A stretch of 43,917 bases of DNA from the NCBI GenBank assembly GCA_049967655.1, contig JBMFSH010000022.1:1-43917 (forward strand). The letters are read 5' to 3'. The notes beneath the pieces were generated by a model that saw only the letters and a list, made by a program, of their open reading frames with translations, was not told the origin of the DNA and made no database searches. Numbering within the stretch: the first letter of the stretch is position 1; each line of letters begins with the position of its first letter. Shown here piece after piece: positions 13,342 to 39,475 of this stretch. The translations under genes and the position numbers were made by a program. This DNA comes from Acidobacteriota bacterium. GTDB taxonomy: Bacteria; Acidobacteriota; UBA4820; DSQY01.

Positions 13342-13776
13342 TTACGCGTACGGATAGATCTTCCGCTTGAAGTCCTCGAGCTGCGACAGAAGACGGTCAT
13401 GCTTCTGCTCGTCTTCGATGAGATAGGTCAGGAGGTGGCGCTGCACGAAGAGGCGGCAGTTGCGGCGCGCCTTTTCGGCCAGCTCGATGGTCTCCTTCTC
13501 CATCTTCGCGTGCTCTTCGATCATGTCCCACACGTCCGCCAGCTCTTCGGGCGACAGCGTGAAGGCCTCCTTCTCCAGGCTGTCGATGATCACCTGCTGG
13601 ACCCGCTTGTGCATCGCCGAGTCCTGCCGGATGATCTCCATCACCAGACGGATCAGGGAGTTCTTCGTCTTCTCCATGATGGCCGAGGTCTGGGAGACCG
13701 TCGCGGTCTCGATATCCTGCCATCGTTTGAGAATACTCAACAGTTCATCGAGGTTCTCTGCCGCTTTCTGGGTCAT
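13342..13776 (-). CDS. Ferritin-like four-helix-bundle hypothetical protein
   Basis: Helical protein with E...DSAMH...E...DEQKH pattern; AGGAGG RBS. Confidence 0.7.
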   Translation of the reverse strand: MTQKAAENLDELLSILKRWQDIETATVSQTSAIMEKTKNSLIRLVMEIIRQDSAMHKRVQQVIIDSLEKEAFTLSPEELADVWDMIEEHAKMEKETIELAEKARRNCRLFVQRHLLTYLIEDEQKHDRLLSQLEDFKRKIYPYA

Positions 13777-13859: not shown

Positions 13860-14108
13860 TTATTCGGGCGCAGAGCCTTCCTTGTGGGGCAGGGTGATGA
13901 AACTGCCGCCGAAATAGCTGTAGACGCAGCGCCCCGAATCCATCAGCATGCGGATGGCGTGCTTGCAGTCGTCCTTGCTGACCTCGCCCTCGCCGTACTT
14001 GGCGATCATGGCCTTAGTGAGGTCTCCCGCCTTGAGGTTCTTCTTCCCCATGGTCTCTTTCACCATCTGGTACATCTCTTCGGCGAGCTGTTCCGTCGTA
14101 ACGGCCAT
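13860..14108 (-). CDS. dsrD: DsrD, DsrAB activator (winged-helix)
   Basis: 82 aa directly after dsrB; KKNLKAGDL ... KHAIRMLMDSGRCVYSYFGGSFI resembles the DsrD pattern. Confidence 0.85.
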   Translation of the reverse strand: MAVTTEQLAEEMYQMVKETMGKKNLKAGDLTKAMIAKYGEGEVSKDDCKHAIRMLMDSGRCVYSYFGGSFITLPHKEGSAPE

Positions 14109-21300: not shown

Positions 21301-22137
21301 TCAACGGGCCGGGGAAACCGCCGGTTCTTCCGCGCCGGCCGCCCTCTGCCTGGCCTCCATGACCGAATGCCGGACCCTCATGGTCTTATCGCCGAACAGG
21401 CTGAACCGCAGCCACTGCATGGCGAAATCCAACAGCTCCTCGTCGTCTGTCCGCAGGGCCTCGACCCTCGCCTCATCCACGTCGAAGTACTCGAGGAACC
21501 GGCTCTCGAAGACGAAGCGACGGAACCGGTCCAGGTCGTAGCAGGCCATGTAGAGCATGTCCAGCTGGGCCGGCGTGAGCGCCTCGCCCTTCTTGGTCCA
21601 TTCCGGGTGGAGCATGAGCGCCTTGAAGGAGGCACCCATCATGTCGTACTCCTCGATGCCCTGGTCCAGGACCCACTCCCGAACGGACCAGCTCCGGCCT
21701 TCGCCGTGGCCCTTGCAGAGCTCCTCGCGAATCAGGAAGTGGAAGCCGTGCTCGTCGGGATTGGGGTTCTGCGGTTCGGCGGCGCCAAGGGGATACATGC
21801 GGCACGCCCACGGGCGGTTCCCGTAGACCGTGCATCCCCTCTCGCCCACGAAGGGGCACCGCTTCTCCTCTCCCTGCATCTTCAGGAGGACCACCGGAAA
21901 TCTTGGCTTCTCGGTGAAGCCGCTCAGCGTGTGCTTCTCAAGAAATTCTGAGGAATCCATGCGCAGGGCGCGCGTCAATCTAAGGACGTCGTAAGGGGTG
22001 AGCACGATGGAGACGTCCTGACAGCAACGGGTAAAGCAGGAGACGCCCGGCCGGCACTCGAAGGTGAACCGGTCGTCGGGTCCCATGCGGGGATAGTCTT
22101 TCAGGATCTTATCGCGGGTTACGCCGTTTTCACTCAT
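21301..22137 (-). CDS. YkgJ-like cysteine-cluster (Zn/Fe-chelating) protein
   Basis: [14 protein letters not shown] and [20 protein letters not shown] motifs. Confidence 0.85.
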
Positions 22138-25149: not shown

Positions 25150-25388
25150 AGAGGGACTTCCCCGACGGTCTTTCCGTTCGAGTTCACCAATTTTATCCCT
25201 TATTAGTCAGGCAATTATGACACACCCTCGGGCCGTGGATTATAAGGCTCATGCACAGATCGATTCATTATGATACATCTCTGTTCAGATCGCCCTTCGG
25301 AACCGGCCCCGCTCCTTGACGGTCACGCTTTGCCTCCATACACTCGGTGCGGCCGCTGGGGCAGCGGCCGCACGAGGGGGGAAGGGGC

Positions 25389-26564
25389 GTGGTCACCCGG
25401 AAAAGCCTGGCACTCACCTTCTTCTTGATCGGATTGACCTCCTACGGGGGGCCGGCCATCGTCGCCCAGATCCGGCAGGTGGTCGTCTTGAAAAGACGCT
25501 GGCTCACCGAGGAGGAATTCCAAGAGTCCCTCGCCTTCTGCCAGACCATCCCAGGCCCCATCGCGGTCCAGACGGCCGCTCACATCGGATGGAGGATGTA
25601 CGGAGGGCTGGGCGAGGCGATCGCCCTAACGGCCTACGTGTTTCCCGCCTTCGGCCTCATGCTGGCCCTTTCCGCCGCCTACTTCCGCTTCGGCTCCGTT
25701 CCCCTCGTGGCGGCCGTCTTCAAGGGGCTGGGGGCCGTGGTCGTGGGCATCGTGGCCGAATCCATCCTCTCCATGACCCAGTCCGCCCTGAGGGATTGGA
25801 AGGGGTTGCTTATCGCCTCGGCGGCGGCGGCCGCCTTCTTCACGCGGCAGAGCACGCTGCTGGTCCTGTTCGGGTCGGCCGCGATTGGAGCGCTTTGGAT
25901 CGGCGGGCCGCCGTGGCGCTGGCGCGCGGGCCAGACGGAGGGGGTTGCGGCCACGGGGAACCGCACCCCCTGGCGGGAAACGGTGGCGTGGGCGTCGGGG
26001 GTGGGGCTCCTCTTCGCCGCCCTTGTGGCGGCATCGGGGTTCCTTCAGCCCCTCTTCCCGGCCCTGGGGCTGGTCATGGTAAAGGTCAACCTGCTGGCCT
26101 TCGGGGGGGGCTACACGGCAGTGGCCCTCATGTACGAGCAGGTCGTCGCCTCGCACGCCTGGCTCACGGCCAAGGAGTTCATCGATGGCCTAGCCCTCGG
26201 CCAAATCACACCGGGGCCGGTCATCGTCACGGCCACCTTCATCGGGTACAAGGTGGGCGGCGTGGGGGGAAGCTGCTTCGCCACCCTGTGCGTCTTCTTG
26301 CCCTCCTCTCTCCTGATGGCGGTTTTGGCTCCCCAATTCCAGCGGATCCGCCGATACGCCGTGGTGGGTGCGGCGGTGCGCGGCCTGCTCGCCGCCTTCA
26401 TCGCCATGCTCTTCCTGGTGCTCTGGCAGGTGGGCAAAGCCTCCCTCCTCGACTGGCCCACGGTGGTCATGGCGCTGGCCGCGCTGACCGCGCTTCGTCT
26501 CAAGGTGAACCCCGTGTGGGTGATCCTCGCGGCCCTGGGGGTGGCCGCGGTGTTCTTCCGGTGA
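25389..26564 (+). CDS. chrA: Chromate ion transporter (CHR family, two-domain)
   Basis: SYGGPA ... IPGPIA and AFGGGY ... ITPGPV duplicated motifs; multi-TM; GTG start chosen by RBS. Confidence 0.9.
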   Translation: MVTRKSLALTFFLIGLTSYGGPAIVAQIRQVVVLKRRWLTEEEFQESLAFCQTIPGPIAVQTAAHIGWRMYGGLGEAIALTAYVFPAFGLMLALSAAYFRFGSVPLVAAVFKGLGAVVVGIVAESILSMTQSALRDWKGLLIASAAAAAFFTRQSTLLVLFGSAAIGALWIGGPPWRWRAGQTEGVAATGNRTPWRETVAWASGVGLLFAALVAASGFLQPLFPALGLVMVKVNLLAFGGGYTAVALMYEQVVASHAWLTAKEFIDGLALGQITPGPVIVTATFIGYKVGGVGGSCFATLCVFLPSSLLMAVLAPQFQRIRRYAVVGAAVRGLLAAFIAMLFLVLWQVGKASLLDWPTVVMALAALTALRLKVNPVWVILAALGVAAVFFR

Positions 26565-26692: not shown

Positions 26693-27040
26693 TCAATGCC
26701 CGGAGTTTTCCAGCTCCTGCTGGCGCGTGATGTTCATGAGGCGCAGGGCGACGTGCACGCCGCCGCGGTCCCTGTACACGATCCGGACCTCGTCCCCTAC
26801 GGCCGGCTCGCTCCCGATCTCCGCCTGGGCCACATCGAAGGTGGCGGCGGGCTCTCCGGGCTGCGACTCGTTCTGAACGCTCACCTGTTTTCCGTCCGCG
26901 CTCACGGCCGTCACCTTCCCTTGCACCACGGGAGCCGTGGCCACACACGCCACGGCGAGCAACGCCACGAGCAGGAGGGCCACCGAACGGGCGGCCCGGA
27001 GGACCCCCTGGGGACCGCGGTTTCTCGTTCCGAAGCTCAT
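26693..27040 (-). CDS. Small secreted/lipoprotein (OB-fold-like, DUF4881-like)
   Basis: Hydrophobic signal ending LLAVAC; VVQGKVTAV ... MNITRQ; ATGA overlap with the TauE gene stop. Confidence 0.65.
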   Translation of the reverse strand: MSFGTRNRGPQGVLRAARSVALLLVALLAVACVATAPVVQGKVTAVSADGKQVSVQNESQPGEPAATFDVAQAEIGSEPAVGDEVRIVYRDRGGVHVALRLMNITRQQELENSGH

Positions 27041-28059
27041 GCCATCCCCCTCTTCGCCCGCAGCTCGCGGGCCGCTCCCTTGACCATGCCGACGATGACG
27101 ACGAGGGTCATGGTAGAAACCGCGGTCATGACCATCCACGAGGCCGCGTCGCTCAGTTTGAGCTGCTTCAGAATGACCGACACCATGGCGCAGGCCACCG
27201 TGAGCCCGAACATGAGGCGGATGCCGTAACCCCGGATGTACTTGGTGGCGATGGTGCCCACCTGGGCACCGGGCGCCGCGCCCAGGAGCATGATGATCAC
27301 GGCCAGCAGCTCGATCCTCCCCTTCATACCGTAGGTGAAGGCCCCGTAGAAGCCGGCGATCATCACGGTGAAGAGGTCCGTACCCACCGCCACGTAGGTG
27401 GGGCAGCCGATGAGGTAGACGAGCGCGGGCATCATCAGCAGGCCGCCGCCGATGCCCAGAAAACCGGCCAGAATTCCCACCATGAGTCCCACTCCCGCGG
27501 GGAGCCACATGGAGCAGCGGACTCCCGCCACCGGGAAACTCACGATGGGAGGGAGGCTGATCTTGTGCAGGGTCTCGTGCCACCGGACCCCCGAAGCCTC
27601 TTCGCCCCCTCCGGGCCCGCCCCGCTTCTCCATGGACCGCTTTTTGAAATAGTCGAAGAAGACCAGCGATCCGATCAGGAAGAGGAACACCACGTAGACC
27701 CAGCGGATGACCGGCCCGGCGAGGCCGAACCGTTCGAGGTGCATGACCAGCCGGGCTCCGATCTCGATGCCCACCACGTCGAAGAGGAGCATGGTGAGCC
27801 CCAGCTTGGCGTCCACGTTGCCGAACTTGGCGTGGCGCCTCGTGGAGATGATGGACTTCCCCGCCATGTGGCACAGGTCCGTGCCCACGGCGAAGGGCAT
27901 GGGGAAGCCGAAGATGTTGAGGGCGGGGGTTACCATCCAGGCCCCGCCCATGCCGAAGAAGCCCCCGAGCACCCCCACCGCCACGCCGAGCAGGACGAGC
28001 AGGAGCACGTTGATGGGGACACCGGAGATGGGCAGCGTGATCGTGAAGAGCTCCATCAT
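27037..28059 (-). CDS. TauE/SafE (TSUP) family permease
   Basis: Two repeats: GGFFGMGGAWMVTPAL...AVGTDL and AGFLGIGGGLLMMPAL...AVGTDL. Confidence 0.92.
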   Translation of the reverse strand: MMELFTITLPISGVPINVLLLVLLGVAVGVLGGFFGMGGAWMVTPALNIFGFPMPFAVGTDLCHMAGKSIISTRRHAKFGNVDAKLGLTMLLFDVVGIEIGARLVMHLERFGLAGPVIRWVYVVFLFLIGSLVFFDYFKKRSMEKRGGPGGGEEASGVRWHETLHKISLPPIVSFPVAGVRCSMWLPAGVGLMVGILAGFLGIGGGLLMMPALVYLIGCPTYVAVGTDLFTVMIAGFYGAFTYGMKGRIELLAVIIMLLGAAPGAQVGTIATKYIRGYGIRLMFGLTVACAMVSVILKQLKLSDAASWMVMTAVSTMTLVVIVGMVKGAARELRAKRGMA

Positions 28060-28068
28060 GGCGGCCAC

Positions 28069-28365
28069 CTACTCCTTCCCCTCGCGCTTGGAGAGGTCCA
28101 GGCCGATGAGGCCCACGATCCAATCCATGAGCAGCCCGAGCATGAGGCCCATGAGGGCCGTCAGGAGCACGGCCTCGAGGGTAAAGAGGAGGCGGTTGGT
28201 GTTGTAAAGGTTGGCGATGTAGAGATTGAAGCCGGCGAGGTTCCTGGTGTCCGCCACGTGCACCAGCTTGCCCTGCTTCTCGCCCCCGCTCGCCCACGCG
28301 GCTACGGGGGCCAGAAACATCAGCACCCCGCAGACCGTGGGACCCAAGGTCCCTATTCGTTTCAT
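28069..28365 (-). CDS. Small membrane protein resembling DVU0150 family
   Basis: Signal peptide, VADTRNL..ANLYN, one TM, IGLDL..RE C-terminus; directly upstream of TauE. Family assignment from recall. Confidence 0.7.
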   Translation of the reverse strand: MKRIGTLGPTVCGVLMFLAPVAAWASGGEKQGKLVHVADTRNLAGFNLYIANLYNTNRLLFTLEAVLLTALMGLMLGLLMDWIVGLIGLDLSKREGKE

Positions 28366-28492
28366 GCTTCCCCCCCCACTTTTCTTCAGGGCGGTACCCC
28401 CCCGCCGGCTGAAGTTCCTCCTCAATATGAAGAGCGCCCGATCCCGGAATCAAGGCCGGGCCGGGACCACCCCCTCCGATTGGTCAAAGGGC

Positions 28493-29830
28493 TCAAAAGA
28501 CCAGTTGGTACTGGAGCCGGAATTCGTAGGAGCGGTACTTGGAGGTGTCGTTGTCGAGCCGGCGGTAGTCCGCCTGGAGCTTGTTCGCCAACCCGTTGAA
28601 GTACCAGTTCACGCCGATACCGGTCTGCTTCTGGCTGTCGTTCAGCTTGTCGGTGTTGGGGTCGTAATCCCATCGCCCGACCACCAGCTCAAGCCGCTTC
28701 GGGATCAGCAGGAATCCAAGCTGGGCGTTGACTCCGGTCGAGTTCGTCCCCAGGTTCTTGAGGTCGTACGCCGTGCGGTTGAAGTACTCTCCGTAGGCCG
28801 TGAACCAGTGGTACTTGACCATGAGATCGCAGCCCTTGGTGGCGTATTCGGAGCCCGACTTGTAGAGGCGCGTCTTACCGTCCCTCACCCTTTGGTCGTT
28901 GTGTTCGTATTCGAAGCCCAGCGACAGCTTGGGGGAGGGCGTCCCGTTCGGGTTCGCCTCGTCGTAGCCCGTGCTACCCCAGGGGCTCACCACGAGACGG
29001 TAGTCGGTCTGGTAGTTGCCGTCGGGGTTCGCGTAGACGCTCCTTCCCCCGCCGTTGTAGACGCCCACGCTGTACTCGAAGAGGTCCTTCACCGCGCTCG
29101 GCCCGAACTGTCCCGTGGCCATGAGGCCCACATCCCGGATGGAGCAGAAGGTCGTGGTCACGAAGGAGCGGTCAGCAAACATGTCCGTCGCCGTGGAGGC
29201 GATACTCTGGCGGCCGAAGGGCGTCTTGCACTGACCGGCCCTCAGCATGAACCACTGGCGCCCGTGGGTGAAGTCGTATTGCACCCACGCGTCATCCAGA
29301 ACGCCGAGGGAGGTGTTGGCGTTGGCCCAGTCCACCTGGAGCCGGAAGGTCAGGTCCTCCGTGTAGGCCCATCCCGTGATCTGGGTCTTGAATCGGCGGA
29401 CCGCGAAGGCCCCGTTGGCCTGTTGATGGGGGTCGTCATAGGTGTCGTTCGTCCAGCGGTACTGCAGACGGTTAGAGAGGTTCACCTCCGCATTGGCGAA
29501 GCGAAAGGTCGCCTTCCCGTCCTTCCAAGACACCGAGAAGGGGGCCGGGGTTGAAGGGGGCGAGGAGACGGCGGCGTGCATCGGTGCCGGTTGCCCGGGT
29601 GCGGCGGCCTCGGTCCGGGCCCGTCCGGCCTCCAGATCGGCCACCCTCTTCTGGAGCGCCTCGATGATGGCCTGCTGGCTCTTGAGGACCTCCTGCGCCT
29701 GCCGAAGTTCGCGCTTCAACTCCTCCATATTTTCATTCACGGATTGCGCCCAGAGAGGCGAGGCTGACAGCGCCACGGCCGAGGCCGCCAGAAACCGCCC
29801 CACCCCGATCCACCTCGTCCAACGGCTCAT
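28493..29830 (-). CDS. OprO/OprP-like anion-selective outer membrane porin
   Basis: Signal peptide, coiled coil, RLQYRW, VRRFK, GQCKTPFG, RDVG; C-terminal beta-signal LQYQLVF. Confidence 0.8.
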   Translation of the reverse strand: MSRWTRWIGVGRFLAASAVALSASPLWAQSVNENMEELKRELRQAQEVLKSQQAIIEALQKRVADLEAGRARTEAAAPGQPAPMHAAVSSPPSTPAPFSVSWKDGKATFRFANAEVNLSNRLQYRWTNDTYDDPHQQANGAFAVRRFKTQITGWAYTEDLTFRLQVDWANANTSLGVLDDAWVQYDFTHGRQWFMLRAGQCKTPFGRQSIASTATDMFADRSFVTTTFCSIRDVGLMATGQFGPSAVKDLFEYSVGVYNGGGRSVYANPDGNYQTDYRLVVSPWGSTGYDEANPNGTPSPKLSLGFEYEHNDQRVRDGKTRLYKSGSEYATKGCDLMVKYHWFTAYGEYFNRTAYDLKNLGTNSTGVNAQLGFLLIPKRLELVVGRWDYDPNTDKLNDSQKQTGIGVNWYFNGLANKLQADYRRLDNDTSKYRSYEFRLQYQLVF

Positions 29831-30190: not shown

Positions 30191-31225
30191 ATGGGAGGGC
30201 GAGGGGAGATCAAGGCCATCGCGCCGGTGGGGGGCCGGTCCCTACGGACCGCGCTGCTCGCGCTCGCCGCCCTGCCGACCCTCGTGCTGCTGGCCTTCGC
30301 GCTCCTTCTCGCGCTCACGGGGGCCCGCCGGCCGGGCGCGCTGGCCGGCCTCCTGCTCCTCGCCCTCTGCGCCGCGCTCCTCGCCTCCATTCCCCTGGTC
30401 CTCCACCTCCTCCACCGCCTCTCCGCCCTTCAGCGCGAGAGCGCGGCCTTCTACCACGAGCTGACGCGGCTCGCCAAAGTGGCCTCCCTCGGCGAGGTCT
30501 CCTCCAGCATCGCTCACGACCTCAACAACCCGCTGGCCATCATGAACGAGGAGGCGGGCTGGGCCATGGATCTCCTCCAGGGGGCGGGTGGCGACGACCG
30601 GGCCGCGCGCGAGGAGATCCGCCATTCGGTGGAACAGATCCAGATCCAGATCCGGCGCTCCCGTGAGATCACCCAGCGCATCCTCAATTGGGCCCGGGAC
30701 ACCGACCAATCCGCCGCGGCCGTGGACCTGAACCTCCTCCTGAGCAAGACGCTCTACCTCCTGGAGAGCGACCTCCAGACCGTACAGGTGCGGGTGGTCA
30801 AACGGCTCGCGAGCGTTCCGCCGGTGGCCGCGGGCAGCGTGGCGGAACTGAGGCAGGTCTTCCTGAACCTCATGAAGAACGCCCTGGACGCCATGGGCGA
30901 GACGGGCGGGACGCTGACCATCGCCACGAGCTCGTCGCCCGGCGAGGTTCGTGCCTCCATCGGCGACACGGGGGCGGGAATTCCCCCGGAGGCGCTGCCC
31001 CGCCTCTTCGAGCCCTTCTTCACCACCAAGGAGGAGGGCAAGGGGACCGGGCTGGGGCTGGCCATCAGCTCCTGGATCGTGGGCAGGCTGGGCGGGCGCA
31101 TCGAGGTGGAGAGCACGCCGGGCCAGGGCGCGGTCTTCACGGTCGTTCTCCCGGCCCGGACTCTCGAAGCGATGGAACTCTGTAACGGAGGGTCGCATGC
31201 GGGTCATCCGACTGTTGCTGGTTGA
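30191..31225 (+). CDS. Histidine kinase with two closely spaced TMs and no periplasmic sensor
   Basis: IAHDLNNPL H-box, QVFLNLMKNA, DTGAG, FFTTK, GTGLGL. Confidence 0.93.
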   Translation: MGGRGEIKAIAPVGGRSLRTALLALAALPTLVLLAFALLLALTGARRPGALAGLLLLALCAALLASIPLVLHLLHRLSALQRESAAFYHELTRLAKVASLGEVSSSIAHDLNNPLAIMNEEAGWAMDLLQGAGGDDRAAREEIRHSVEQIQIQIRRSREITQRILNWARDTDQSAAAVDLNLLLSKTLYLLESDLQTVQVRVVKRLASVPPVAAGSVAELRQVFLNLMKNALDAMGETGGTLTIATSSSPGEVRASIGDTGAGIPPEALPRLFEPFFTTKEEGKGTGLGLAISSWIVGRLGGRIEVESTPGQGAVFTVVLPARTLEAMELCNGGSHAGHPTVAG

Positions 31226-31580
31226 CGACGAAGAGCGATTCGTGGAGACGCTCTGCAAACGGCTCACGGCGCGAGGGCTTTACGTCGAGGGGACCCACTC
31301 GGGAGAGGCCGCGCTCGCCCTGCTCCAGGCGCGCCCCTTCGACGTGGTGCTCCTGGACGTCCGGATGCCCGGGATGGACGGCATCCAGACCCTGCGGGAG
31401 ATCAAGAAGGTCCAGCCCCTGGTGCAGGTGATCCTCCTCTCGGGGAACGCCTCCATCAACACGGCCGTGGAGGGCATGCGCCTCGGGGCGGCGGACTACC
31501 TGCTCAAGCCCGCCGAGATCGAGGAGGTCATGGCCAAGGTGGAAGAGGCCTTCGAGAGGAAACGGCTGGAGGAGGGGTGA
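31197..31580 (+). CDS. Single-domain response regulator
   Basis: LVDDE, LLDVRMPG, LSG, LKP; 127 aa; no output domain. Confidence 0.92.
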   Translation: MRVIRLLLVDDEERFVETLCKRLTARGLYVEGTHSGEAALALLQARPFDVVLLDVRMPGMDGIQTLREIKKVQPLVQVILLSGNASINTAVEGMRLGAADYLLKPAEIEEVMAKVEEAFERKRLEEG

Positions 31581-31708
31581 ATTCTCCATTCGGAGTTCGG
31601 GGAGGAAAAGAAAATGATCACCAAGACACCAGGACACCAAGGGTGGGGATTGGGAATGGCGAAGGGCTATAGGCGAATCGAAAGACCATCGTTCGTACGA
31701 AACCAGGG

Positions 31709-31870
31709 CGTAGAAGCGCTCGCCAGAAGGCGCTCTCTGGAAGTGGCAAGGCACATTGGCCCCTGGAGAGGCCTCCCGCGGGCCGTCGCTTCCCGCGTCT
31801 CGCCTCTTTGCGTCTCACGTCTGACGTCTCGCCTCTTTGCGTCCCATCTCACTTCCCACTCCTCACTTCC
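31709..31870 (+). repeat. Dispersed intergenic repeat (family B), copy 2, with short tandem units
   Basis: Aligns to reverse complement of 1284..1430; CGTCTCGCCTCTTTGCGTC occurs twice; TCTCACTTCCCACTCCTCAC also at 13317-13336. Confidence 0.65.
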
Positions 31871-31879
31871 CCAGGAGCC

Positions 31880-34513
31880 ATGCCTAATGGGGTGACGCGG
31901 CTGCTTCGCAAGCTCTTCGGCCTGGATCACTGGCGTCCGGTGGTGGCCCGCCCGGACCGGCGGACGGCGCTCTCGCTCCAATACCGCCTCTTCAAGGAGC
32001 TGATCACCTCCAACGACGAGATCCTGGAGCTCATCGCGGACGTGGAGCAGAAGCTCCAGGGCGACAAGCTCTTCGGCATGACCTACGTGCGCTCCCGGTG
32101 CGTCAACGCCGCGACGCACGCCTATCGGATGATCCAGACCATCAACAAGCTGAGCTGCCGGCGCTACCAGGAGCTCTACGGCGTCTTCAACGGAATCCAG
32201 GCCCGGCTGGAGCGCCAGCTCGACAGGAGGCCGCACGCGATCGGGGCTCCCGCGGTCTACCCGCTGAGCGAAGTGGACCTGGGCCTGGCCGAGCGGGTGG
32301 GCACCAAGAGCGCCAACCTGGGAGAGCTGCGCAACAGGGCCAAGCTCCCGGTTCCGGACGGATTTGCCATCTCCACCGACGCCTTTCTCGCCCTGTTGCA
32401 AACCGGCCAGCTCCGGGAGGAGATCCGCGCCATGGAGATGGGGGTGGAGCTGGAAGATCAGGCGAGCCTGGCGGCGGCCAGCGCGTCCATCCGCGGCGCC
32501 ATCCTCCGGGCGCCCCTTCCGGAGGGGCTGGAGGCGGCCATCCTGGGGGCCTACCTGCGGCTGGGGGAGCGGCTGAAGTGCGCGCCCAGGGTCTCCCTCC
32601 GCTCCAGCGCCGTGGGAGAGGACACCCAGACCTCCTTCGCCGGCCAGTACGTGAGCGTGCTCAACGTCTCGAGCGGGGAGATCCTCGGCGCCTACCGGGA
32701 GGTCCTCGCCGGGCTCTATACCCCGAGGGCCATCTACTACCGCGCCGTAAACGGAATCCTGGAAGAGGACGTGCCCATGGGCGTGGCCTGCGTGGCCATG
32801 GTGGACGCCCTCGCCAGCGGGGTGGCCGCCAGCGCGGACCCCGGCCGGCCCCACTCCGGAGCGCTGCTGATCAACGGCTCGTGGGGGCTGGGCGTGGGCA
32901 CCGTGAGCGGTTCCGTGAGCCCCGATTTCTGGGAGGTCGAGAAGGGAGCCGAGCCCCGCGTCCTGAGCTTCCGCCTGGGCACCAAGGAGATCCGCGTGGA
33001 TCCCCTTCCCCAGGGCGGGGTGGGGCCGAGCCCCGTGGAGCCGGCCCTGCGGGAACGACCCTGCCTGGAGGAGAAGCAGGTGCGGGAGCTCGCCCGCCTG
33101 GTGATGGCGGCGGAGGAGCACTACGGGGCTGCCCTGGAGCTGGAGTGGGCCCTCGACGGGATGGGCCGGTTCCAGCTCCTCCAGTGCCGTCCCCTGCGCC
33201 TCTCCGCGAGCCACGGAACCCTCCGGCGGGAGGCCCCCGAGGAGGTGGAGGGCCACCCCCGGCTTCTGACGGGCGCCGGCGCTTCCGGCGGCTGCCGGTC
33301 GGGCCCCGTGGTCCTGGCCAACAGCCCCGAGGAGCTGGGCCTCTTCCCCGAAGGCGGCGTGCTGGTGGCGCGCCACTCCTCCCCGCAGTTCGTGAAGGTC
33401 CTGGACCGCGCCGCCGCCGTCGTGACGGACGTGGGCGGTGCCACGGGGCACATGGCCTCCCTGGCCAGGGAGTTCGGGGTGCCGGCCGTACTGGACGCCC
33501 AGAAGGCCACGGCGGTCCTGAAGCCCGGCCAGGTGGTGACCGTGGACGCGGACCGCGGCGCCGTTTACGAGGGTCGAGTGGAGGGGCTCCTGGTCGGCCA
33601 GGCCCCGAGCGGGATCCGGCGCAGCATCCGGGGAACGCCCATCTACCAGGTGCTTCAGGAGGCGGCCCAGTTCATCGTCCCCCTCAACCTTACGGACCCC
33701 CGATCGCCCGACTTCCAGCCCTCATCCTGCCAGAGCTTCCACGATATCGCCCGCTTCATCCACGAGAAGGCCTTCGAGGAGATGTTCCGCGTGAGCGACC
33801 AGGTGGCCGATGGAGAGGCCCGCGCCGTGAGGCTGGAGGCGCGCCTGCCCTTCGAGGTCTACCTCATCGATCTGGGCGGCGGGCTGGCTCCGACCGCGGA
33901 GGGCGGCGCGGTATCCGCCGAGGAGATCGCCTCCGGGCCCATGCGAGCCCTCCTGGCGGGCATGACGAACCCCGAGCTGCGGTGGTGGGAGCCCCGCGGC
34001 ATCAGCGTGACCGGTTTCGTCTCCGTGGCTACCGAGTCGCTCTTCTCCCCCCGCCACGACCTCGGCCAGCGGCGGCTGGGCGACCGCAGCTACGCCATCG
34101 TGGCCGAAGCCTACTGCAACTTCAGCTCCCGGATCGGCTACCACTTCGCCGCCGTGGACGCCTATTGCTCCGACTCCCTGCACCGCAACTACGTGAGCTT
34201 CCGCTTCAAGGGCGGCGCCGCGGACCCGGAGCGCAGGGCCCGGCGGTGCGCCTTCATCGCGGAGGTGCTCTCCCGGCTGGACTTCCAGGTGGAGAGGCAG
34301 GGGGACCTGGTGAACGGCCGCCTCCGCAAGTTCGGCAAGGAGACCCTGCTGGACCGGCTGGACCAGGTGGGACGCCTGATCATCGCCACCCGGCAGCTCG
34401 ACATGCGGATGGGGCCCGGCAGTTCGGTGGAGTGGCACGCGTCGGCCTTCCTCTCGGGGAACTACCTCTTCGACCCCGCCATCCGGCCCGAAGGGGCCGG
34501 GCGTGAGGGATGA
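31880..34513 (+). CDS. PEP synthase/PPDK-like protein 1 (ATP-grasp + phospho-His swivel + unknown C-domain)
   Basis: VGTKSANL, RSSAVGED, SFAGQY, ELEWA, LQCRP, GGATGHMASLAREFGVPA; AGGAG RBS before ATG 31880. Confidence 0.88.
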   Translation: MPNGVTRLLRKLFGLDHWRPVVARPDRRTALSLQYRLFKELITSNDEILELIADVEQKLQGDKLFGMTYVRSRCVNAATHAYRMIQTINKLSCRRYQELYGVFNGIQARLERQLDRRPHAIGAPAVYPLSEVDLGLAERVGTKSANLGELRNRAKLPVPDGFAISTDAFLALLQTGQLREEIRAMEMGVELEDQASLAAASASIRGAILRAPLPEGLEAAILGAYLRLGERLKCAPRVSLRSSAVGEDTQTSFAGQYVSVLNVSSGEILGAYREVLAGLYTPRAIYYRAVNGILEEDVPMGVACVAMVDALASGVAASADPGRPHSGALLINGSWGLGVGTVSGSVSPDFWEVEKGAEPRVLSFRLGTKEIRVDPLPQGGVGPSPVEPALRERPCLEEKQVRELARLVMAAEEHYGAALELEWALDGMGRFQLLQCRPLRLSASHGTLRREAPEEVEGHPRLLTGAGASGGCRSGPVVLANSPEELGLFPEGGVLVARHSSPQFVKVLDRAAAVVTDVGGATGHMASLAREFGVPAVLDAQKATAVLKPGQVVTVDADRGAVYEGRVEGLLVGQAPSGIRRSIRGTPIYQVLQEAAQFIVPLNLTDPRSPDFQPSSCQSFHDIARFIHEKAFEEMFRVSDQVADGEARAVRLEARLPFEVYLIDLGGGLAPTAEGGAVSAEEIASGPMRALLAGMTNPELRWWEPRGISVTGFVSVATESLFSPRHDLGQRRLGDRSYAIVAEAYCNFSSRIGYHFAAVDAYCSDSLHRNYVSFRFKGGAADPERRARRCAFIAEVLSRLDFQVERQGDLVNGRLRKFGKETLLDRLDQVGRLIIATRQLDMRMGPGSSVEWHASAFLSGNYLFDPAIRPEGAGREG

Positions 34514-37110
34514 CGATGGACTGGGAGGGGTGGGTCCGGGGGCTGAGGGAGCGGCTGGCGAGGGGGGCCGGCGAGGACCCGAGCCGGGCGCTCCAGCGCA
34601 AATACGAGGCCTTCAAACGCCTGGTCGCGGCCAACAACGCCGCCCTCGATCTCATGGCGGATCTCCAGGCCAAGGCCTCCGGCGAGTACCTCTTCGACAT
34701 GGCCTACGTTCGGCAGGCCGTGGGCCGGCTGATGGAGGAGGGCCGGGCTTCCGTCGCGGCTCTGGACGAGCTCTCCGACGGGCGCTACCGGGGGCTCCGG
34801 CCGGCGCTGGCGCGCGTGGAGGAGGCGGTGAGCGGCTCCATGGCCCAGGCCGCCGGCCCGCCTCCCGGGCCGCCGGTGCTGGACCTGTCGGCCATCCCGG
34901 AGGTGCCCGTGGAGCTCGTGGGGAACAAGAACCTCCGCCTGGCCGAGATCCGCTCGAAGGTGGGGCTGCCCGTGCCCGACGGCTTCGTGGTCACCAGCCG
35001 GGCCTGCCGCGACTTTCTGGAGGCCGGCGCGCTGCTGGGAACCCTCTCGGAGACGGTCCAGGGGCTGGTGCTGGCGGACCAGGCGGCCCTCGTCCGGATC
35101 AGCGCCCTCATCGCCCGGGAGATCGCCGCCGTCCCCTGGCCCGCCGACCGAGCCCACGCCATCCTCGATAGCTACGACGGCCTCGCCCGGCGCCTGGGGC
35201 GCTCCTCCCCCCTGGTCTCGGTCCGCTCGAGCGCCGTGGGGGAGGACGGGGAGTTCAGCTTCGCGGGCCAGTACGCGACCCTCCTCAACGTGGGCCGGGA
35301 CCGCCTCCTGGAGGCCTGCAAGGAGGTCATAGCGAGCCAGTTCAGCCCGCGGGCCCTGGTCTACTACAAGGCCAGGGGGCTCTCCGATGCGCTGCTACCC
35401 ATGGCCGTGGGCGTCATCGCCATGGTGGACGGCCGGGCCAGCGGCGTCCTCTACACGCGGGATCCGCAGGAGCCGGACTCGGACGCCATGCTCGTGGCGG
35501 GCCACTGGGGGCTCGGCCCAACCACCGTGGACGGCCGCAGCACGCCCGATCTCTTCCGGGTGTCGAGGGAGGAGGGCCACGCCGTGCTGGGAAGCACCGT
35601 GGCCCGGAAGGAGACGATGCTCCTGTGCCGCGAGGGCGAGGGCCTCGTGGAGACCGCCGTGCCCGGCTGGATGCGGGAGCAGCCCTGTCTAACACGGGAC
35701 CAGCTCGCCCTCCTGGGCGAATACGGCCTCCGGCTCGAGGAGCACTACGGGCGGGCCCAGGACGTGGAGTGGGCGGTGGACGCCGAGGAGCGCGTGCTCA
35801 TCCTCCAGTCCAGGCCCCTGAGGCTGGCCTCCCGGGCGACGCCCGGGCCCGGGGTGGCGGCCCTGCGCCAGGGGCTGGAGCCGATCCTCTCCGAGGGGGT
35901 GATCGCTTCGCGCGGCGTGGGCGCCGGCCCCGTGGCCCTCCTCGCCAGCGAGGAGGAGTTGGGCGCGGTGCCCGCCGGGGCCGTCCTCGTCGCCCGAGCC
36001 GCCTCGCCGCAGCTGGCCGAGGCGGTGCACCGCGTGGCCGCCGTCGTCACGGAGGCGGGCTCGGCAGCCAGCCACCTGGCCACCGTGGCGCGCGAGTTCC
36101 GGGTCCCCGCCATCGTCGGTGTCCGGGGAGCCATGGAGCGCCTGCACCCCGGCCAGGTCGTGACGGTGGACGCGGAGATGGGCAACATCTACGAGGGGCG
36201 CCAGGAGTCCCTGCTCGCGGCGGCGGCCGCGTCGCGCGCGCAGGAGTCGGCCGACTCTCCCCTCTTCCGGCGTCTACGAGAGGTTCTCTCCCACCTCACG
36301 CCGCTGAACCTCACCGATCCCAGGGCTCGCCAGTTCAAGCCCTCGGGCTGCCGCACCCTGCACGACCTGCTCCGCTTCTCCCACGAGATGGCGGTCCAGG
36401 AGATGTTCCTGGCGGGCGGACGCGCCACGGCCGGCGCGCGCGGGGCGCTGAAACTCCGGAGCCCCATCCCCCTCGACTTCACCTTCATCGACCTGGGGGG
36501 CGGGCTGGAGGTGCCCGAGGGGAGCCGCACGGTGGCCCCCGAACAGTTCCGGTGCGAGCCGCTCCTGGCGGTGTGGCGGGGGGTGGCCGAGGTTCCGTGG
36601 GACACCGGCTCCGCCGTGGACGCCCGCGCCGCGGCCTCCACCATCGCCTCTACGCTGTCCTCGGGCGACCTCCTCCAGCGGATGGCCGAGCCGAACTTCG
36701 CGGTGGTCTCCCGCTCCTACCTGAACCTCTGCTTCCGCCTCGGCTTCCACTTCTCCCGCGTGGACGCCTCGCTCTCCGACGACGATGCCTCCAACTACGC
36801 CGCCTTTCTCTTCCACGGCGGGGCGGCGGACGCGGCGGGCAAGACGCGCCGCGTGGCCTTCATGGCCAAGGTCCTGGAGCAGGCGGGGTTCTCGGTCTCA
36901 GCCCGGGAGGACGCCCTCTTCGCCCGCCTCGACAGGTCTGGCCGGGCGGGGCTGGAGGCGGCGCTGAGGCTGCTGGGGCGGCTCCTGGTGGTGACGCGGC
37001 AGGCGGACACCCTCATGACCGACGAGGGGGCCGCGGAGAGGGCGACCCGCGCCTTTCTCGCGGGTGACTTCACGCTCGGGCTTCGGCCCGGCACCAGAGA
37101 AGGGAGGTAG
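34510..37110 (+). CDS. PEP synthase/PPDK-like protein 2 (paralog)
   Basis: RSSAVGED, SFAGQY, DVEWA, LQSRP, GSAASHLATVAREFRVPA; ATGA overlap with paralog 1. Confidence 0.88.
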   Translation: MTMDWEGWVRGLRERLARGAGEDPSRALQRKYEAFKRLVAANNAALDLMADLQAKASGEYLFDMAYVRQAVGRLMEEGRASVAALDELSDGRYRGLRPALARVEEAVSGSMAQAAGPPPGPPVLDLSAIPEVPVELVGNKNLRLAEIRSKVGLPVPDGFVVTSRACRDFLEAGALLGTLSETVQGLVLADQAALVRISALIAREIAAVPWPADRAHAILDSYDGLARRLGRSSPLVSVRSSAVGEDGEFSFAGQYATLLNVGRDRLLEACKEVIASQFSPRALVYYKARGLSDALLPMAVGVIAMVDGRASGVLYTRDPQEPDSDAMLVAGHWGLGPTTVDGRSTPDLFRVSREEGHAVLGSTVARKETMLLCREGEGLVETAVPGWMREQPCLTRDQLALLGEYGLRLEEHYGRAQDVEWAVDAEERVLILQSRPLRLASRATPGPGVAALRQGLEPILSEGVIASRGVGAGPVALLASEEELGAVPAGAVLVARAASPQLAEAVHRVAAVVTEAGSAASHLATVAREFRVPAIVGVRGAMERLHPGQVVTVDAEMGNIYEGRQESLLAAAAASRAQESADSPLFRRLREVLSHLTPLNLTDPRARQFKPSGCRTLHDLLRFSHEMAVQEMFLAGGRATAGARGALKLRSPIPLDFTFIDLGGGLEVPEGSRTVAPEQFRCEPLLAVWRGVAEVPWDTGSAVDARAAASTIASTLSSGDLLQRMAEPNFAVVSRSYLNLCFRLGFHFSRVDASLSDDDASNYAAFLFHGGAADAAGKTRRVAFMAKVLEQAGFSVSAREDALFARLDRSGRAGLEAALRLLGRLLVVTRQADTLMTDEGAAERATRAFLAGDFTLGLRPGTREGR

Positions 37111-37112
37111 CC

Positions 37113-38921
37113 GTGCGCTGGTACCAAAACCGAAGGGTCGTGCCCCTCGTCGGCATGGTCGCCGCGGCGGCCCTGCTCGTGGCGGCCTTCATCCTGGGGC
37201 TGGTCTCCTTCGGCAAGATGCGGCAGGTGGTGTCCCAGGAGTTCAACCAGCAGCAGCTCGTGCTGGCCGAGAACCTGGCCGTCCTGATCCACCAGGACCT
37301 GGATTTTCTGCGGCGCGAGCTGCTGGTCCTCAACGAGTCTCCCAGCCTGAGCCAGCCCGGGAGCAAGGACTGGAAGAGCCGCCTTCAGGTGACCCTCCGC
37401 TCGGTCCAGAGCGACGAGCTCCTGGAGATCCGGTACGTGGACGCCTCGGGCGAGACGTGCGAGGTGTGCGATGCGCGGGGGCGCGTCCGGCTGGAGCGGG
37501 GCACCTACGCCGAGGAGCCCTACTTCCGGTGGGCCCAGAGGCCCGAGAACCGCGGCCGCGTCTACCTGGGGGACCGGCTGCCGGTGGAGGAGGCCCGCCT
37601 CGGCGGCCGTCCGCTCCTCCTGCTGGCCACGCCCCACTACCCCGCCTCCCGCGGTGGGCTCGGGCCTCACCCGCCGCACGTCTTCTCGGGGGTACTCCTC
37701 TTCGTGGTGGACGCCTCCGCCCTCGCCACGCGCTTCACCGAGGACGCCCGGTCGGGCACCTCGGGCTACGCCTGGGTGATCAACGAGAAGGGGACCTTCC
37801 TGGCCCACCCCATGCGGGATTTCATCGGCCAGAACGCCTTCACCGCCCGCCAGAGAAAGGACCCCAGGATGGGCTTCGAGGGGATCAACGTGATCATGCG
37901 CGAGCGGATGCTCAAGGGCCAGTCGGGCACCGGCGAGTACGTCTCGGGCTGGCACCGGCAGATCCGGGGGCCCGTCCGGAAGCTCATCGGATTCGCCCCC
38001 GTGATCCTGGACCACGACCGGCGGGAGGTGCTCTGGTCGGTGGCCGTCGTGGCCCCGGTGAGCGAGGTCCAGGGCATGGTGCGCGCCCTCTTCCTGCGGC
38101 AGTTCTTCGTGCAGACCGCCATCTTCCTGGCCATCCTGGCGGGCCTCCTCTCGCTAATCCGCCTGGAGCGCTACTGGGGCCAGATCAAGAAGCAGAAGGA
38201 GCAGCAGATCAACCTCAGCGCCCGCCTGGCGGCCCTCGGCACCCTGGCCGCCGGCGTGGCGCACGAGATCAACAATCCCATCGCCATCATCCTCGGCTTC
38301 ACGGACCTGCTCCTCGAAGGGGAGAAGCCGGGCACCAAGGTCTACGAACAGCTCAAGATCATCGAGAGGCAGGGGCTGGCCTGCAAGAAGATCGTGGAGA
38401 ACCTGAACCGCTTCGCGCGGGTGCCCGAGCAGGCCGCCGAGACCGCCGACGTCAACGAGGAGCTCCAGCGCATGGTGGAGATGGTTCAGAACACCCTGCT
38501 CACAGAAAAGGTGCGGGTCGTGACGGAGCTGGAGCCCGGACTCCCTCGCGTCATCGGGGAGCCGCACGGACTCCAGCAGGTGCTCCTCAACCTCGTGACC
38601 AACGCCAGGGCCGCCATGCGCGACGGGGGCGTGCTCACGCTCCGCACGCGGCGCACCGGCGAGTGGGTGGAGATCGCCGTGAGCGATACGGGCCAAGGGA
38701 TACGACAAGACGATCTGGAGAGGATCTTCGACCCTTTCTTCACCACGAAGGCTCCGGGCGAGGGGACGGGCCTTGGGCTCTCCATCAGCCACGGCATCAT
38801 CGAAAACGCGGGCGGCACCATCACCGTGACGAGCGTCCACGAGTCCGAGGCGGGCGGCCAGCCGTCGGGGAGCACCTTCGTGATCCGCCTCCGGACGGCG
38901 CCCCCGGAGGAGGAGGCGTGA
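37113..38921 (+). CDS. Sensor histidine kinase with large periplasmic Cache-like domain
   Basis: Two TMs flanking ~300 aa (GYAWVINEKGTFLAHP); VAHEINNPI, FFTTK, GTGLGL. Confidence 0.93.
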   Translation: MRWYQNRRVVPLVGMVAAAALLVAAFILGLVSFGKMRQVVSQEFNQQQLVLAENLAVLIHQDLDFLRRELLVLNESPSLSQPGSKDWKSRLQVTLRSVQSDELLEIRYVDASGETCEVCDARGRVRLERGTYAEEPYFRWAQRPENRGRVYLGDRLPVEEARLGGRPLLLLATPHYPASRGGLGPHPPHVFSGVLLFVVDASALATRFTEDARSGTSGYAWVINEKGTFLAHPMRDFIGQNAFTARQRKDPRMGFEGINVIMRERMLKGQSGTGEYVSGWHRQIRGPVRKLIGFAPVILDHDRREVLWSVAVVAPVSEVQGMVRALFLRQFFVQTAIFLAILAGLLSLIRLERYWGQIKKQKEQQINLSARLAALGTLAAGVAHEINNPIAIILGFTDLLLEGEKPGTKVYEQLKIIERQGLACKKIVENLNRFARVPEQAAETADVNEELQRMVEMVQNTLLTEKVRVVTELEPGLPRVIGEPHGLQQVLLNLVTNARAAMRDGGVLTLRTRRTGEWVEIAVSDTGQGIRQDDLERIFDPFFTTKAPGEGTGLGLSISHGIIENAGGTITVTSVHESEAGGQPSGSTFVIRLRTAPPEEEA

Positions 38922-39070
38922 TACCATTTCCAAGACGAGATCCGGCTAAGGAGCACACGAGGGGCACGGGGTTCTGCAATGAAGGAACGCATTTCCCTGC
39001 GCCCTCTTTGTGCTCCGCGGCGCCGATCTCATGGGCCTTCGGCGCGGGGGGCCGCGAGAGGAGATAGGCC

Positions 39071-39475
39071 ATGGCGGAGAGAATTCTGATCCTGGATGAC
39101 GAAGTGGACATGCTCCTGCTGCTGGAGACCATCATCACCTCCAAGACCGACCACGAGGTCGTCACCACTAATAACCCGCTGGAGCTGGAGGAGCTCCTGA
39201 GGACCCACTCCTTCGGAATGGTGATCTCGGACCTGAAGATGCTCGGCCGGGACGGCCTGGAGGTCATCGGCGTGGTCCACGCCCACGACCCCGCCCTCCC
39301 GGTGGTCATCATCACGGCCTACGGAAGCCTGGAGTCGGCTCAGGAGGCCGTCCGGCGGGGCGCCTACGACTACATCACCAAGCCCTTCCGCAAGGAGCAG
39401 GTGCTCATCGCCATCGAGCGCGCCCTCGAATGGCGCCGTATCACCCGGGAGAACGAGCAGCTCAAGGGCCGGTGA
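39071..39475 (+). CDS. Single-domain response regulator (NtrC-receiver-like)
   Basis: ILDDE, ISDLKM, ITAYG, ITKP; ends after a short helical tail. Confidence 0.92.
   Translation: MAERILILDDEVDMLLLLETIITSKTDHEVVTTNNPLELEELLRTHSFGMVISDLKMLGRDGLEVIGVVHAHDPALPVVIITAYGSLESAQEAVRRGAYDYITKPFRKEQVLIAIERALEWRRITRENEQLKGR

Follow-up and report, generated by a model that had tools for sequence, protein, structure and literature searches.

A recurrent DVU0150-TauE-OB-fold gene trio beside apr and dsr genes of an Acidobacteriota bacterium as a candidate sulfur-oxyanion importer

We analyzed a stretch of 43,917 nucleotides (hereafter "the window"; contig JBMFSH010000022.1 of assembly GCA_049967655.1) from an Acidobacteriota bacterium whose genome (G000) is 99.32% complete, and focused on a run of minus-strand genes that lies close to the genes for adenylyl-sulfate (APS) reductase (aprBA) and dissimilatory sulfite reductase (dsr). 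Three of these genes encode a DVU0150-family protein, a TSUP/TauE permease of the DVU0149 clade and a periplasmic lipoprotein with an oligonucleotide/oligosaccharide-binding (OB) fold, and this trio recurs across several phyla, nearly always in genomes with dsr or apr genes. Weighing all of the evidence below, we place the chances about evenly for and against the trio being an importer of a sulfur oxyanion that serves the adjacent dissimilatory (APS-reductase/Dsr) pathway, with sulfate the most likely substrate and thiosulfate or sulfite possible ones. An earlier note on this DNA had proposed an operon of four genes, a porin being the fourth, that would form a multi-subunit sulfate/sulfite/thiosulfate transport complex; its protein families, the likeness to Desulfovibrio vulgaris DVU0148-0150 and the link to the sulfur pathway held up, whereas the four-gene unit and its borders did not.

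A three-gene unit conserved across phyla

Reading from 29830 down to 26693, the minus strand carries four open reading frames (ORFs), all of coding-type composition (G+C at third codon positions, GC3, 0.87-0.91), and the picture of four co-oriented genes with the last three abutting or overlapping was borne out (Table 1). The DVU0150-family gene likely starts at ATG 28365, which has a G-rich ribosome-binding stretch ahead of it (the ORF list has TTG 28425), while the TauE start, GTG 28068, lies immediately 3' of the DVU0150 stop with an alternative ATG 9-12 nt further on, such that the spacing between the two genes is 0-12 nt and the permease would have 340 residues if ATG 28059 is the start. 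The TauE stop and the lipoprotein ATG overlap as ATGA, through which the lipoprotein is translationally coupled to TauE. A 127-nt gap separates the porin stop from ATG 28365, and the porin may be co-transcribed with the other three genes, judging by its orientation and spacing. Simple scans found no sigma-70-like or sigma-54-like promoters in the two intergenic gaps (the window has 13 loose sigma-54-like sites, 0 of them within the two upstream gaps), and terminator-like hairpins were not enriched (3 observed versus 2.1 expected from shuffles); because these scans gave nothing above chance, operon structure is argued here from spacing and synteny.

Seeking the same arrangement elsewhere, we recovered 26 loci in a permease search (22 with the full trio, 2 cut by contig ends and 2 with unrelated archaeal TauE proteins), and a wider scan with the permease alignment returned at least 564 relatives, with 79 new loci examined alongside L003, L023 and L048 for a total of 82. 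The closest public relatives of the window sequence itself are Acidobacteriota metagenome-assembled genomes (MAGs), and the 82 loci span Acidobacteriota, many Desulfobacterota genera, Zixibacteria, Planctomycetota, and Polyangiaceae, Chitinivibrionia and Acidithiobacillales MAGs. A DVU0150 gene stands upstream of TauE in 80 of the 82 loci, the 2 misses being contigs that start inside the permease gene, and an OB protein follows TauE in 79. The loci without a separate OB gene comprise one cut by its contig end (L113), one that has no OB protein (L110), and a Pirellulales MAG (L080:8995-10350) in which TauE and the OB protein run on in a single reading frame, uninterrupted by a stop codon. There the OB part retains a signal-peptide-like helix and a lipobox, and this helix would, judging by the sequence, be an extra membrane span; either the two genes are truly fused or the OB part has an internal start. 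With 79-80 of 82 related loci holding the trio, the gene arrangement is far beyond chance, and the conserved unit is the DVU0150, TauE and OB trio rather than a quartet. A pattern scan with the DVU0150 alignment gave no loci beyond the acidobacterial ones already found. In five loci (L015, L016, L019, L021, L022) a second, distant TauE paralogue (31-34% identity) lies about 400-900 nt past the OB gene, and in L019 and L022 it stands between the trio and aprBA.

Distribution relative to dsr and apr genes

We evaluated the distribution of the trio in a sample of 401 Acidobacteriota genomes, among whose negatives is one unpublished genome (G049). The DVU0150 marker was found in 21 of the 401 (17 over the cut-off), with carriers from five families, and strong DsrA matches in 41 (39 over the cut-off plus two fragments). 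Nineteen of the 21 marker carriers have strong DsrA and the other two, which are 73% and 64% complete, have AprA, such that the marker occurs in this sample solely in genomes with dsr or apr. AprA was found in 34 of the 41 DsrA-positive genomes and the module in 18 of those 34; because the other 16 are without it, the module is not essential to the pathway. Among the dsr-only genomes (83-100% complete) the module is present in 0 of 6, and one further carrier without an AprA match is only 67% complete.

The same association was seen beyond the phylum. For a cross-phylum test we took 50 of 71 candidate loci, chosen before any dsr result, from a set that includes Planctomycetota, Zixibacteria, Polyangiaceae and Acidithiobacillales MAGs. 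The earlier note had named a wide distribution unrelated to sulfur metabolism as the pattern that would speak against it; what we found was DsrA in 44 and AprA in 45 of the 50 locus-holding genomes, in addition to the 21 acidobacterial carriers that all have dsr or apr. Physical linkage points the same way, as aprBA lies directly downstream of the trio in 7 of the 26 loci (in the window a ChrA gene alone stands between), and in one genome (G401) a single contig holds the trio with aprA and dsrA within 12-20 kb of it. In the sample of that genome's phylum, evidently other than the phylum of Desulfovibrio, the DVU0150 marker is present in 3 of 401 genomes. We interpret the tie between module and dsr/apr as a strong association, not a law.

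A safety valve would also be expected to show this association, namely a trio that exports sulfite or another toxic intermediate (thiosulfate, trithionate) from cells running Dsr. Export would also suit the Pfam family, which is named after sulfite/sulfoacetate export, and the OB protein, which resembles the efflux-system partner CusF. Against it stand the absence of the module from the six dsr-only genomes, which are of the sulfite-reducer type, and two observations on Desulfovibrio: passages of PMC4265775 describe the related D. vulgaris cluster as induced without sulfate respiration and repressed by sulfate, the opposite of what a sulfite valve would do, and passages of PMC4001038 report that loss of the permease of the DVU0251 cluster protects from external nitrate, which argues for inward flow. 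We consider export quite improbable.

Carriers in the host genome

The host has a complete sat-apr-qmo-dsr set yet no SulP, DASS or SulT carrier (Table 1), and since these classical carriers are absent, the acceptor must enter via a TSUP protein, a ChrA-type protein, PiT or another route. The ChrA-type protein encoded between the trio and aprBA is a candidate second oxyanion carrier beside the pathway, and its gene holds the same place in the closest relatives (L001 and L002). For sulfate reducers more broadly, passages of Marietou et al. (PMC5840216) offer families only as candidates for sulfate entry, describe some genomes with TSUP proteins as sole candidates and, for certain cultured sulfate reducers, arrive at the impasse that is met in this host. 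In the literature that we searched (supplements aside), no function is assigned to the DVU0145-0150-type proteins and no dsr/apr association is reported for them: the main text of PMC6018796, on peatland Acidobacteria, mentions neither TauE, permease nor porin, and PMC10504309 mentions neither TauE, transporter nor TSUP. NCBIfam and Pfam catalogue these proteins as families without assigned function. Relative to this literature, the obligate TSUP trio, its near-restriction to apr/dsr genomes across phyla and the porin add-on described below are new, as are the split between apr-bearing and dsr-only genomes and the carrier census.

Properties of the three proteins

Hidden Markov models supported the family assignments of the earlier note, with the permease and the DVU0150-family protein over their cut-offs and the porin placed through a profile of its homologues and its fold. 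The permease matches Pfam PF01925 with 147.8 bits (cut-off 32.6) over residues 24-296 and model positions 1-235 of 237, and its hydropathy indicates helices throughout residues 5-333. Each half carries a Gly-rich motif (GGFFGxGGAW, invariant, in the first; GxGGG...MP in the second), relatives in other phyla share 51-62% identity, and an alignment of 79 sequences has 92 invariant columns, including D64, H67, R78, H79, E102, E112, C185 and K276.

The DVU0150-family protein scores 87.6 bits against NF040783 (curated cut-off 70), and a scan of the whole host genome with this model found one copy, at 87.7 bits. Alignments indicate that its signal peptide is followed by a conserved stretch in the periplasm (KLVHVADTR...LYN), a single transmembrane helix and a short tail on the cytoplasmic side. 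The likeness to DVU0148-0150, which the earlier note had named, is thus confirmed by a curated model and by a Desulfovibrio MAG (L071) that keeps this order of genes. Multimer prediction, one of the checks proposed with that note, paired TauE and mature DVU0150 with a score of 0.54 (best of 3 controls, 0.00), a run-to-run contact agreement of at least 74% and a partner confidence (predicted local distance difference test, pLDDT) of at least 58. In benchmarking, 116 of 157 solved complexes reached the mark for this score, as did 2 of 215 mismatched pairs; those that reached it at scores of 0.60 or lower were only 18 of the 157 solved complexes, together with both of the passing mismatches. The prediction lends weak support to a physical TauE-DVU0150 complex.

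The OB protein carries a signal peptide and the lipobox LAVAC in the window, whereas Desulfobacterota OB proteins have a plain signal peptide instead of the lipobox. It scores 23.7 bits against DUF4881 (PF16222), under the cut-off of 27 and over model positions 98-169 of 174 only, such that the window protein corresponds to only the C-terminal OB part of DUF4881 (the copy in genome G693 has 214 residues). Its AlphaFold2 (AF2) model, with a mean pLDDT of 92.4, is a predicted small OB barrel whose top fold matches in the PDB are CusF structures (3e6z, E 6.1e-5, TMt 0.68) at 17-18% identity; a feature search (Atlas) gave leads only, to DUF4881 and CusF clusters at 0.80. The metal site of CusF is made of His/Met/Met/Trp. 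Across 77 aligned OB proteins only V38, G41, R86 and M102 are invariant, and the alignment keeps no metal site of His, Cys or paired Met, the invariant Met being single. We set aside a CusF-like metal chaperone reading because its ligand residues are unconserved in this alignment.

These folds also bear on whether the trio carries a non-sulfur solute, be it an inorganic anion, a metal delivered in CusF-like manner or a metabolite of syntrophy, with the dsr/apr tie reflecting lifestyle or descent. The closest folds of the OB protein are the Cu/Ag chaperones CusF and SilF, the chromate-family carrier ChrA is encoded next door, the D. vulgaris cluster was first noticed as syntrophy-induced (in passages of PMC4265775), TSUP substrates are described as largely unknown (in passages of PMC5840216), and 3 of the 50 cross-phylum carriers, as well as G693, gave no DsrA or AprA match. 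Set against this are the lack of any conserved metal site, the occurrence of the module in several phyla in which the carriers are nearly always dsr/apr members, and its frequent position physically beside aprBA. On balance we regard a non-sulfur solute as unlikely.

The porin as an add-on

Behind its signal peptide the porin has a coiled-coil helix in the periplasm (about residues 32-75) and then a beta-barrel, which takes up about residues 98-445. Alone, its sequence gave no Pfam match at E<=0.01 and nothing relevant in a PDB sequence search, and its family was reached through 24 homologues: 21 of them match Porin_O_P (PF07396), and the family profile matched OprO (4rjx) at 4.3e-12, aligned over the barrel. 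The top three Foldseek matches of the AF2 model (mean pLDDT 83.9) are OprP 2o4v and OprO 4rjw/4rjx, with template-modelling (TM) scores of 0.59-0.63, and the best, OprP 2o4v (E 3.3e-17, TM 0.59/0.63, identity 16-17%), suggests a barrel of the same fold. Across the 24 homologues twelve basic positions vary little or not at all, and the barrel contains 23 Arg and 16 Lys; the profile alignment with OprO is too gapped to place the residues of the arginine ladder, lysine cluster and central phosphate site (listed in PMC5877670).

The porin adjoins the trio in 7 of the 22 complete acidobacterial loci and in 3 of the 82 loci overall. Among its 16 closest relatives (52-76% identity) 8 adjoin the trio module, and among 64 more distant relatives 0 do. 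We conclude that the porin was added to the trio in one acidobacterial subclade, and that the envelope-spanning four-gene operon proposed earlier gives the porin too large a place.

Neither pst nor phoBR genes occur in the window and the neighboring kinase has no PhoR-level score; lacking this Pho context, a reading as genuine phosphate porin was set aside for the window protein. Distant relatives (30-45% identity), with a kinase gene frequently found immediately upstream, could well be phosphate porins. Of the close relatives away from the trio, one (L137) sits between an SBP_bac_11 ATP-binding cassette (ABC) transporter and ChrA-aprBA in a locus without the trio, and another (L143:3195-4763, minus strand) is unlinked from the trio and divergent to a PF03601 (YeiH-like) membrane protein. 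Transporter classifications list the latter family as a putative sulfate exporter.

Neighboring genes

Divergently from the porin, the window encodes two histidine kinases, two stand-alone receivers and two tandem phosphoenolpyruvate (PEP)-synthase-like proteins (Table 1), and the divergent placement of the kinase is kept in acidobacterial loci. Of the 82 loci, 60 have a PEP-synthase-like gene near the trio, a neighborhood conserved in many phyla; of the 48 with at least 6 kb on both sides, 40 do. A kinase of the window's type is near the trio in 42 of the 82, being missing from 20 of these 48 well-flanked loci. The borders drawn by the earlier note (26693..29830) are thus too narrow, as the kinases, receivers and PEP-synthase-like genes (30191-39475) share the conserved neighborhood. 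Each PEP-synthase-like protein joins an ATP-grasp PPDK_N domain and a mobile His domain to a C-terminal region of about 300 residues, and the PEP/pyruvate-binding domain is absent from both. The C-terminal regions match no Pfam family at E<=1, and a feature search (Atlas) with them returned only clusters that are unnamed or named "PEP-utilizing enzyme family".

Table 1. Features of the window and carrier families in the host genome.
Feature	Location	Strand	Details
DsrL/GltD-like NAD(P)-binding iron-sulfur flavoprotein	11557-13218	-	NF009410, 622.9 bits; between dsrC and dsrB
Small ORF	13342-13776	-	directly after dsrB; no Pfam match at 1e-5
Small ORF	13860-14108	-	directly after dsrB; no Pfam match at 1e-5
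CxxCxxCC protein	21301-22137	-	PF03692; between qmoA and aprA
ChrA/CHR-family transporter	25347..26564	+	PF02417, 254.8 bits; convergent between trio and aprBA
Periplasmic OB-fold lipoprotein	26693..27040	-	115 aa; lipobox Cys32
TSUP/TauE permease, DVU0149 clade	27037..28068	-	343 aa; PF01925
DVU0150-family protein	28069..28365	-	98 aa; NF040783 over cut-off
Porin	28493..29830	-	445 aa; OprO/OprP (Porin_O_P) superfamily, outer membrane
Histidine kinase	30191..31225	+	two N-terminal membrane helices, no recognized sensor domain; divergent from porin
Receiver response regulator, stand-alone	31197..31580	+	127 aa, no output domain; overlaps kinase gene
Two tandem PEP-synthase-like proteins	31880..37110	+	second gene from 34510
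dCache-type sensor histidine kinase	37113..38921	+	also in Desulfovibrio MAG locus L071
Second stand-alone receiver	39071..39475	+	pair with the dCache kinase also in L071
SulP	host genome		none
DASS	host genome		none
CysT-type ABC permease	host genome		none over cut-off
PiT	host genome		one, paired with a PhoU_div gene as usual for phosphate carriers
ATP sulfurylase (Sat)	host genome		one, no carrier beside it
TauE matches	host genome		nine

This company raises the alternative of a chiefly sensory trio (a transceptor), which would signal to the membrane-embedded kinase, the receivers and the PEP-synthase-like enzymes that an anion is present or flowing, and would not carry substrate in bulk. 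The divergent kinase lacks a sensor domain and has two membrane helices, and membrane kinases of this build often take their signal from a partner transporter. Most loci hold kinase, receiver and PEP-synthase-like genes along with the trio, and passages of PMC4001038 describe receiver and PPDK-like mutants of the nitrate cluster that share the permease phenotype. Set against this, the permease core is strongly conserved, like that of a working carrier, with its 92 invariant columns, a dedicated porin before a mere sensor would be odd, and 8 of the 48 well-flanked loci have no PEP-synthase-like gene nearby, as 20 have no kinase. We judge a primarily sensory role to be improbable.

Beyond ChrA, the window continues with aprBA, the CxxCxxCC protein, qmoABC, dsrAB, the DsrL-like flavoprotein, dsrC and dsrMKJOP. 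Because a DsrL/GltD-like flavoprotein is present, the direction of the Dsr pathway here is not self-evident. One of the two small ORFs after dsrB may be a divergent DsrD.

Proposed function and its weighing

Returning to import of a sulfur oxyanion, both the inward flow and the class of substrate are argued from the apr linkage, the split between apr-bearing and dsr-only genomes, the induction without sulfate in D. vulgaris and the genetics of DVU0251-0245. In the mechanism that we propose, the anion would cross the inner membrane through the permease, on which the DVU0150 subunit would pack with its single helix, and the OB protein would be a periplasmic partner in substrate handling or gating, as CusF is for its pump. 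In the porin-bearing acidobacterial subclade an OprP-fold anion pore would feed the periplasm, and the string of genes would thereby cover outer membrane, periplasm and inner membrane. The neighboring kinases, receivers and PEP-synthase-like enzymes probably control how the system is expressed or how active it is. These last enzymes would act in the pathway of the permease, because PPDK-like mutants share the permease phenotype (passages of PMC4001038), and the induction without sulfate described in passages of PMC4265775 fits an uptake system induced by starvation. A fuller version, in which the trio is a dedicated sulfate (or thiosulfate) importer of sulfate reducers that is switched on under scarcity, licensed by the dikinases and kinase, and constitutes the main acceptor route here with its own sulfate pore, we put forward as a tentative and rather doubtful extension.

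Several observations weigh against import of a sulfur oxyanion. The substrate is argued from context only, the namesake of the TauE family exports sulfite/sulfoacetate and the direction of transport is accordingly unsettled, and the score for the TauE-DVU0150 complex lies in a range that both passing mismatches share. The host has other candidate sulfate carriers (8 further TauE paralogues and the ChrA protein by aprBA), and passages of PMC5840216 point to another TSUP clade, the one with DVU2958. As for distribution, 16 of the 34 Acidobacteriota with both apr and dsr are without the module, 3 of the 50 MAGs in the cross-phylum test have neither DsrA nor AprA, and G693 has the trio and a PEP-synthase-like gene with DsrA and AprA not matched; the counts, moreover, include related, non-independent genomes, which overstates their statistical weight. 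Finally, the porin is a putative anion pore and is only loosely linked to the module, as its low frequency beside the trio attests.

How sulfate and related anions enter sulfate reducers is still unsettled, and the trio represents a concrete, testable candidate. It is a useful target in that it is a conserved, putatively multi-subunit TSUP carrier, nearly confined to apr/dsr genomes and present in D. vulgaris, a model organism with routine knock-outs and uptake assays. If the proposal is true, it would provide a first function for the DVU0150 family, for the DUF4881-type OB proteins and for the syntrophy-induced DVU0145-0150 cluster, and would help predict the sulfate-reducing capacity of uncultured Acidobacteriota (e.g., from peat, mine drainage and sediments).

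Relation to known systems

Several described systems share parts with the window locus. The OprP/OprO porins of Pseudomonas aeruginosa (phosphate, pyrophosphate) have the barrel fold and many conserved Arg/Lys in common with the window porin, which differs from them in its N-terminal coiled coil. CusF, from the CusCFBA efflux system for Cu(I)/Ag(I), is the same small five-stranded OB barrel and likewise a periplasmic accessory to a membrane transporter; it partners an RND (resistance-nodulation-division) pump, whereas the partner of the window OB protein is a TSUP secondary carrier, and the metal ligands are not conserved here.

The extHIJKL cluster of Geobacter sulfurreducens (selenite/tellurite reduction, PMC5877670) likewise has a Porin_O_P-type porin, ExtI, and an exported protein of about 100 residues, ExtJ. 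The ExtI model matches 19 of the 24 porin homologues (best 2.1e-13) and the ExtJ model 16 of the 77 OB proteins (best 8.3e-5). The window proteins themselves score 31.9 against ExtI NF040900, far under its cut-off of 150, and 22.9 against ExtJ NF040942, likewise far below its cut-off of 52.5, and no rhodanese or cytochrome genes lie beside the window quartet. With scores below the cut-offs and the ext context absent, identity with the ExtI/ExtJ pair was ruled out. Here the OB protein has the TauE permease, and not the porin, as its constant partner.

The only relative with genetics, in the passages considered, is the nitrate cluster DVU0251-DVU0245 (Dde_0597-0605) of Korte et al. 2014 (PMC4001038), in which TauE, receiver and PPDK-like mutants are all nitrate-resistant; G20 mutants grew slightly more poorly on thiosulfate, and the authors propose a leaky thiosulfate importer. 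Compared by its description, this cluster has the same architecture (TauE, small conserved hypothetical protein, kinase, receiver, PPDK-like protein), and it differs in its paralogous TauE clade and in a PtxB-like binding protein and phosphatase, with DVU0150 and OB proteins not on record in those passages.

The closest likeness is to DVU0145-0150 of D. vulgaris Hildenborough, which we compared through descriptions, the NCBIfam model and the Desulfovibrio MAG L071. Since 2009 this type of cluster has been recognized from its expression behavior: passages of PMC4265775, with reference to Walker 2009 and Plugge 2010, describe DVU0145-0150 (lipoproteins, membrane proteins) as induced during syntrophic growth free of sulfate and repressed once sulfate is back, and passages of PMC4641369 describe a sigma-54 operon, DVU0150-DVU0146, under DVU0151. 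In L071 the order is a divergent sigma-54 activator, DVU0150, TauE, the OB protein, a 366-residue protein, a receiver, a PEP-synthase-like protein and a dCache kinase. The D. vulgaris cluster and the window share the same core of DVU0150, TauE and a small exported protein that bears the DUF4881 C-terminal part, and likewise the receiver, PEP-synthase-like enzyme and dCache kinase alongside, as seen in L071 and in agreement with the passages of both papers. The window differs in that no sigma-54 activator lies nearby and no sigma-54-like promoter in the gaps, the regulatory genes are divergent instead of following downstream, the PEP-synthase-like gene is present twice, the OB protein is of the lipoprotein kind, a porin is added and the locus stands beside aprBA. 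By gene content, the window locus is of the DVU0145-0150 type.

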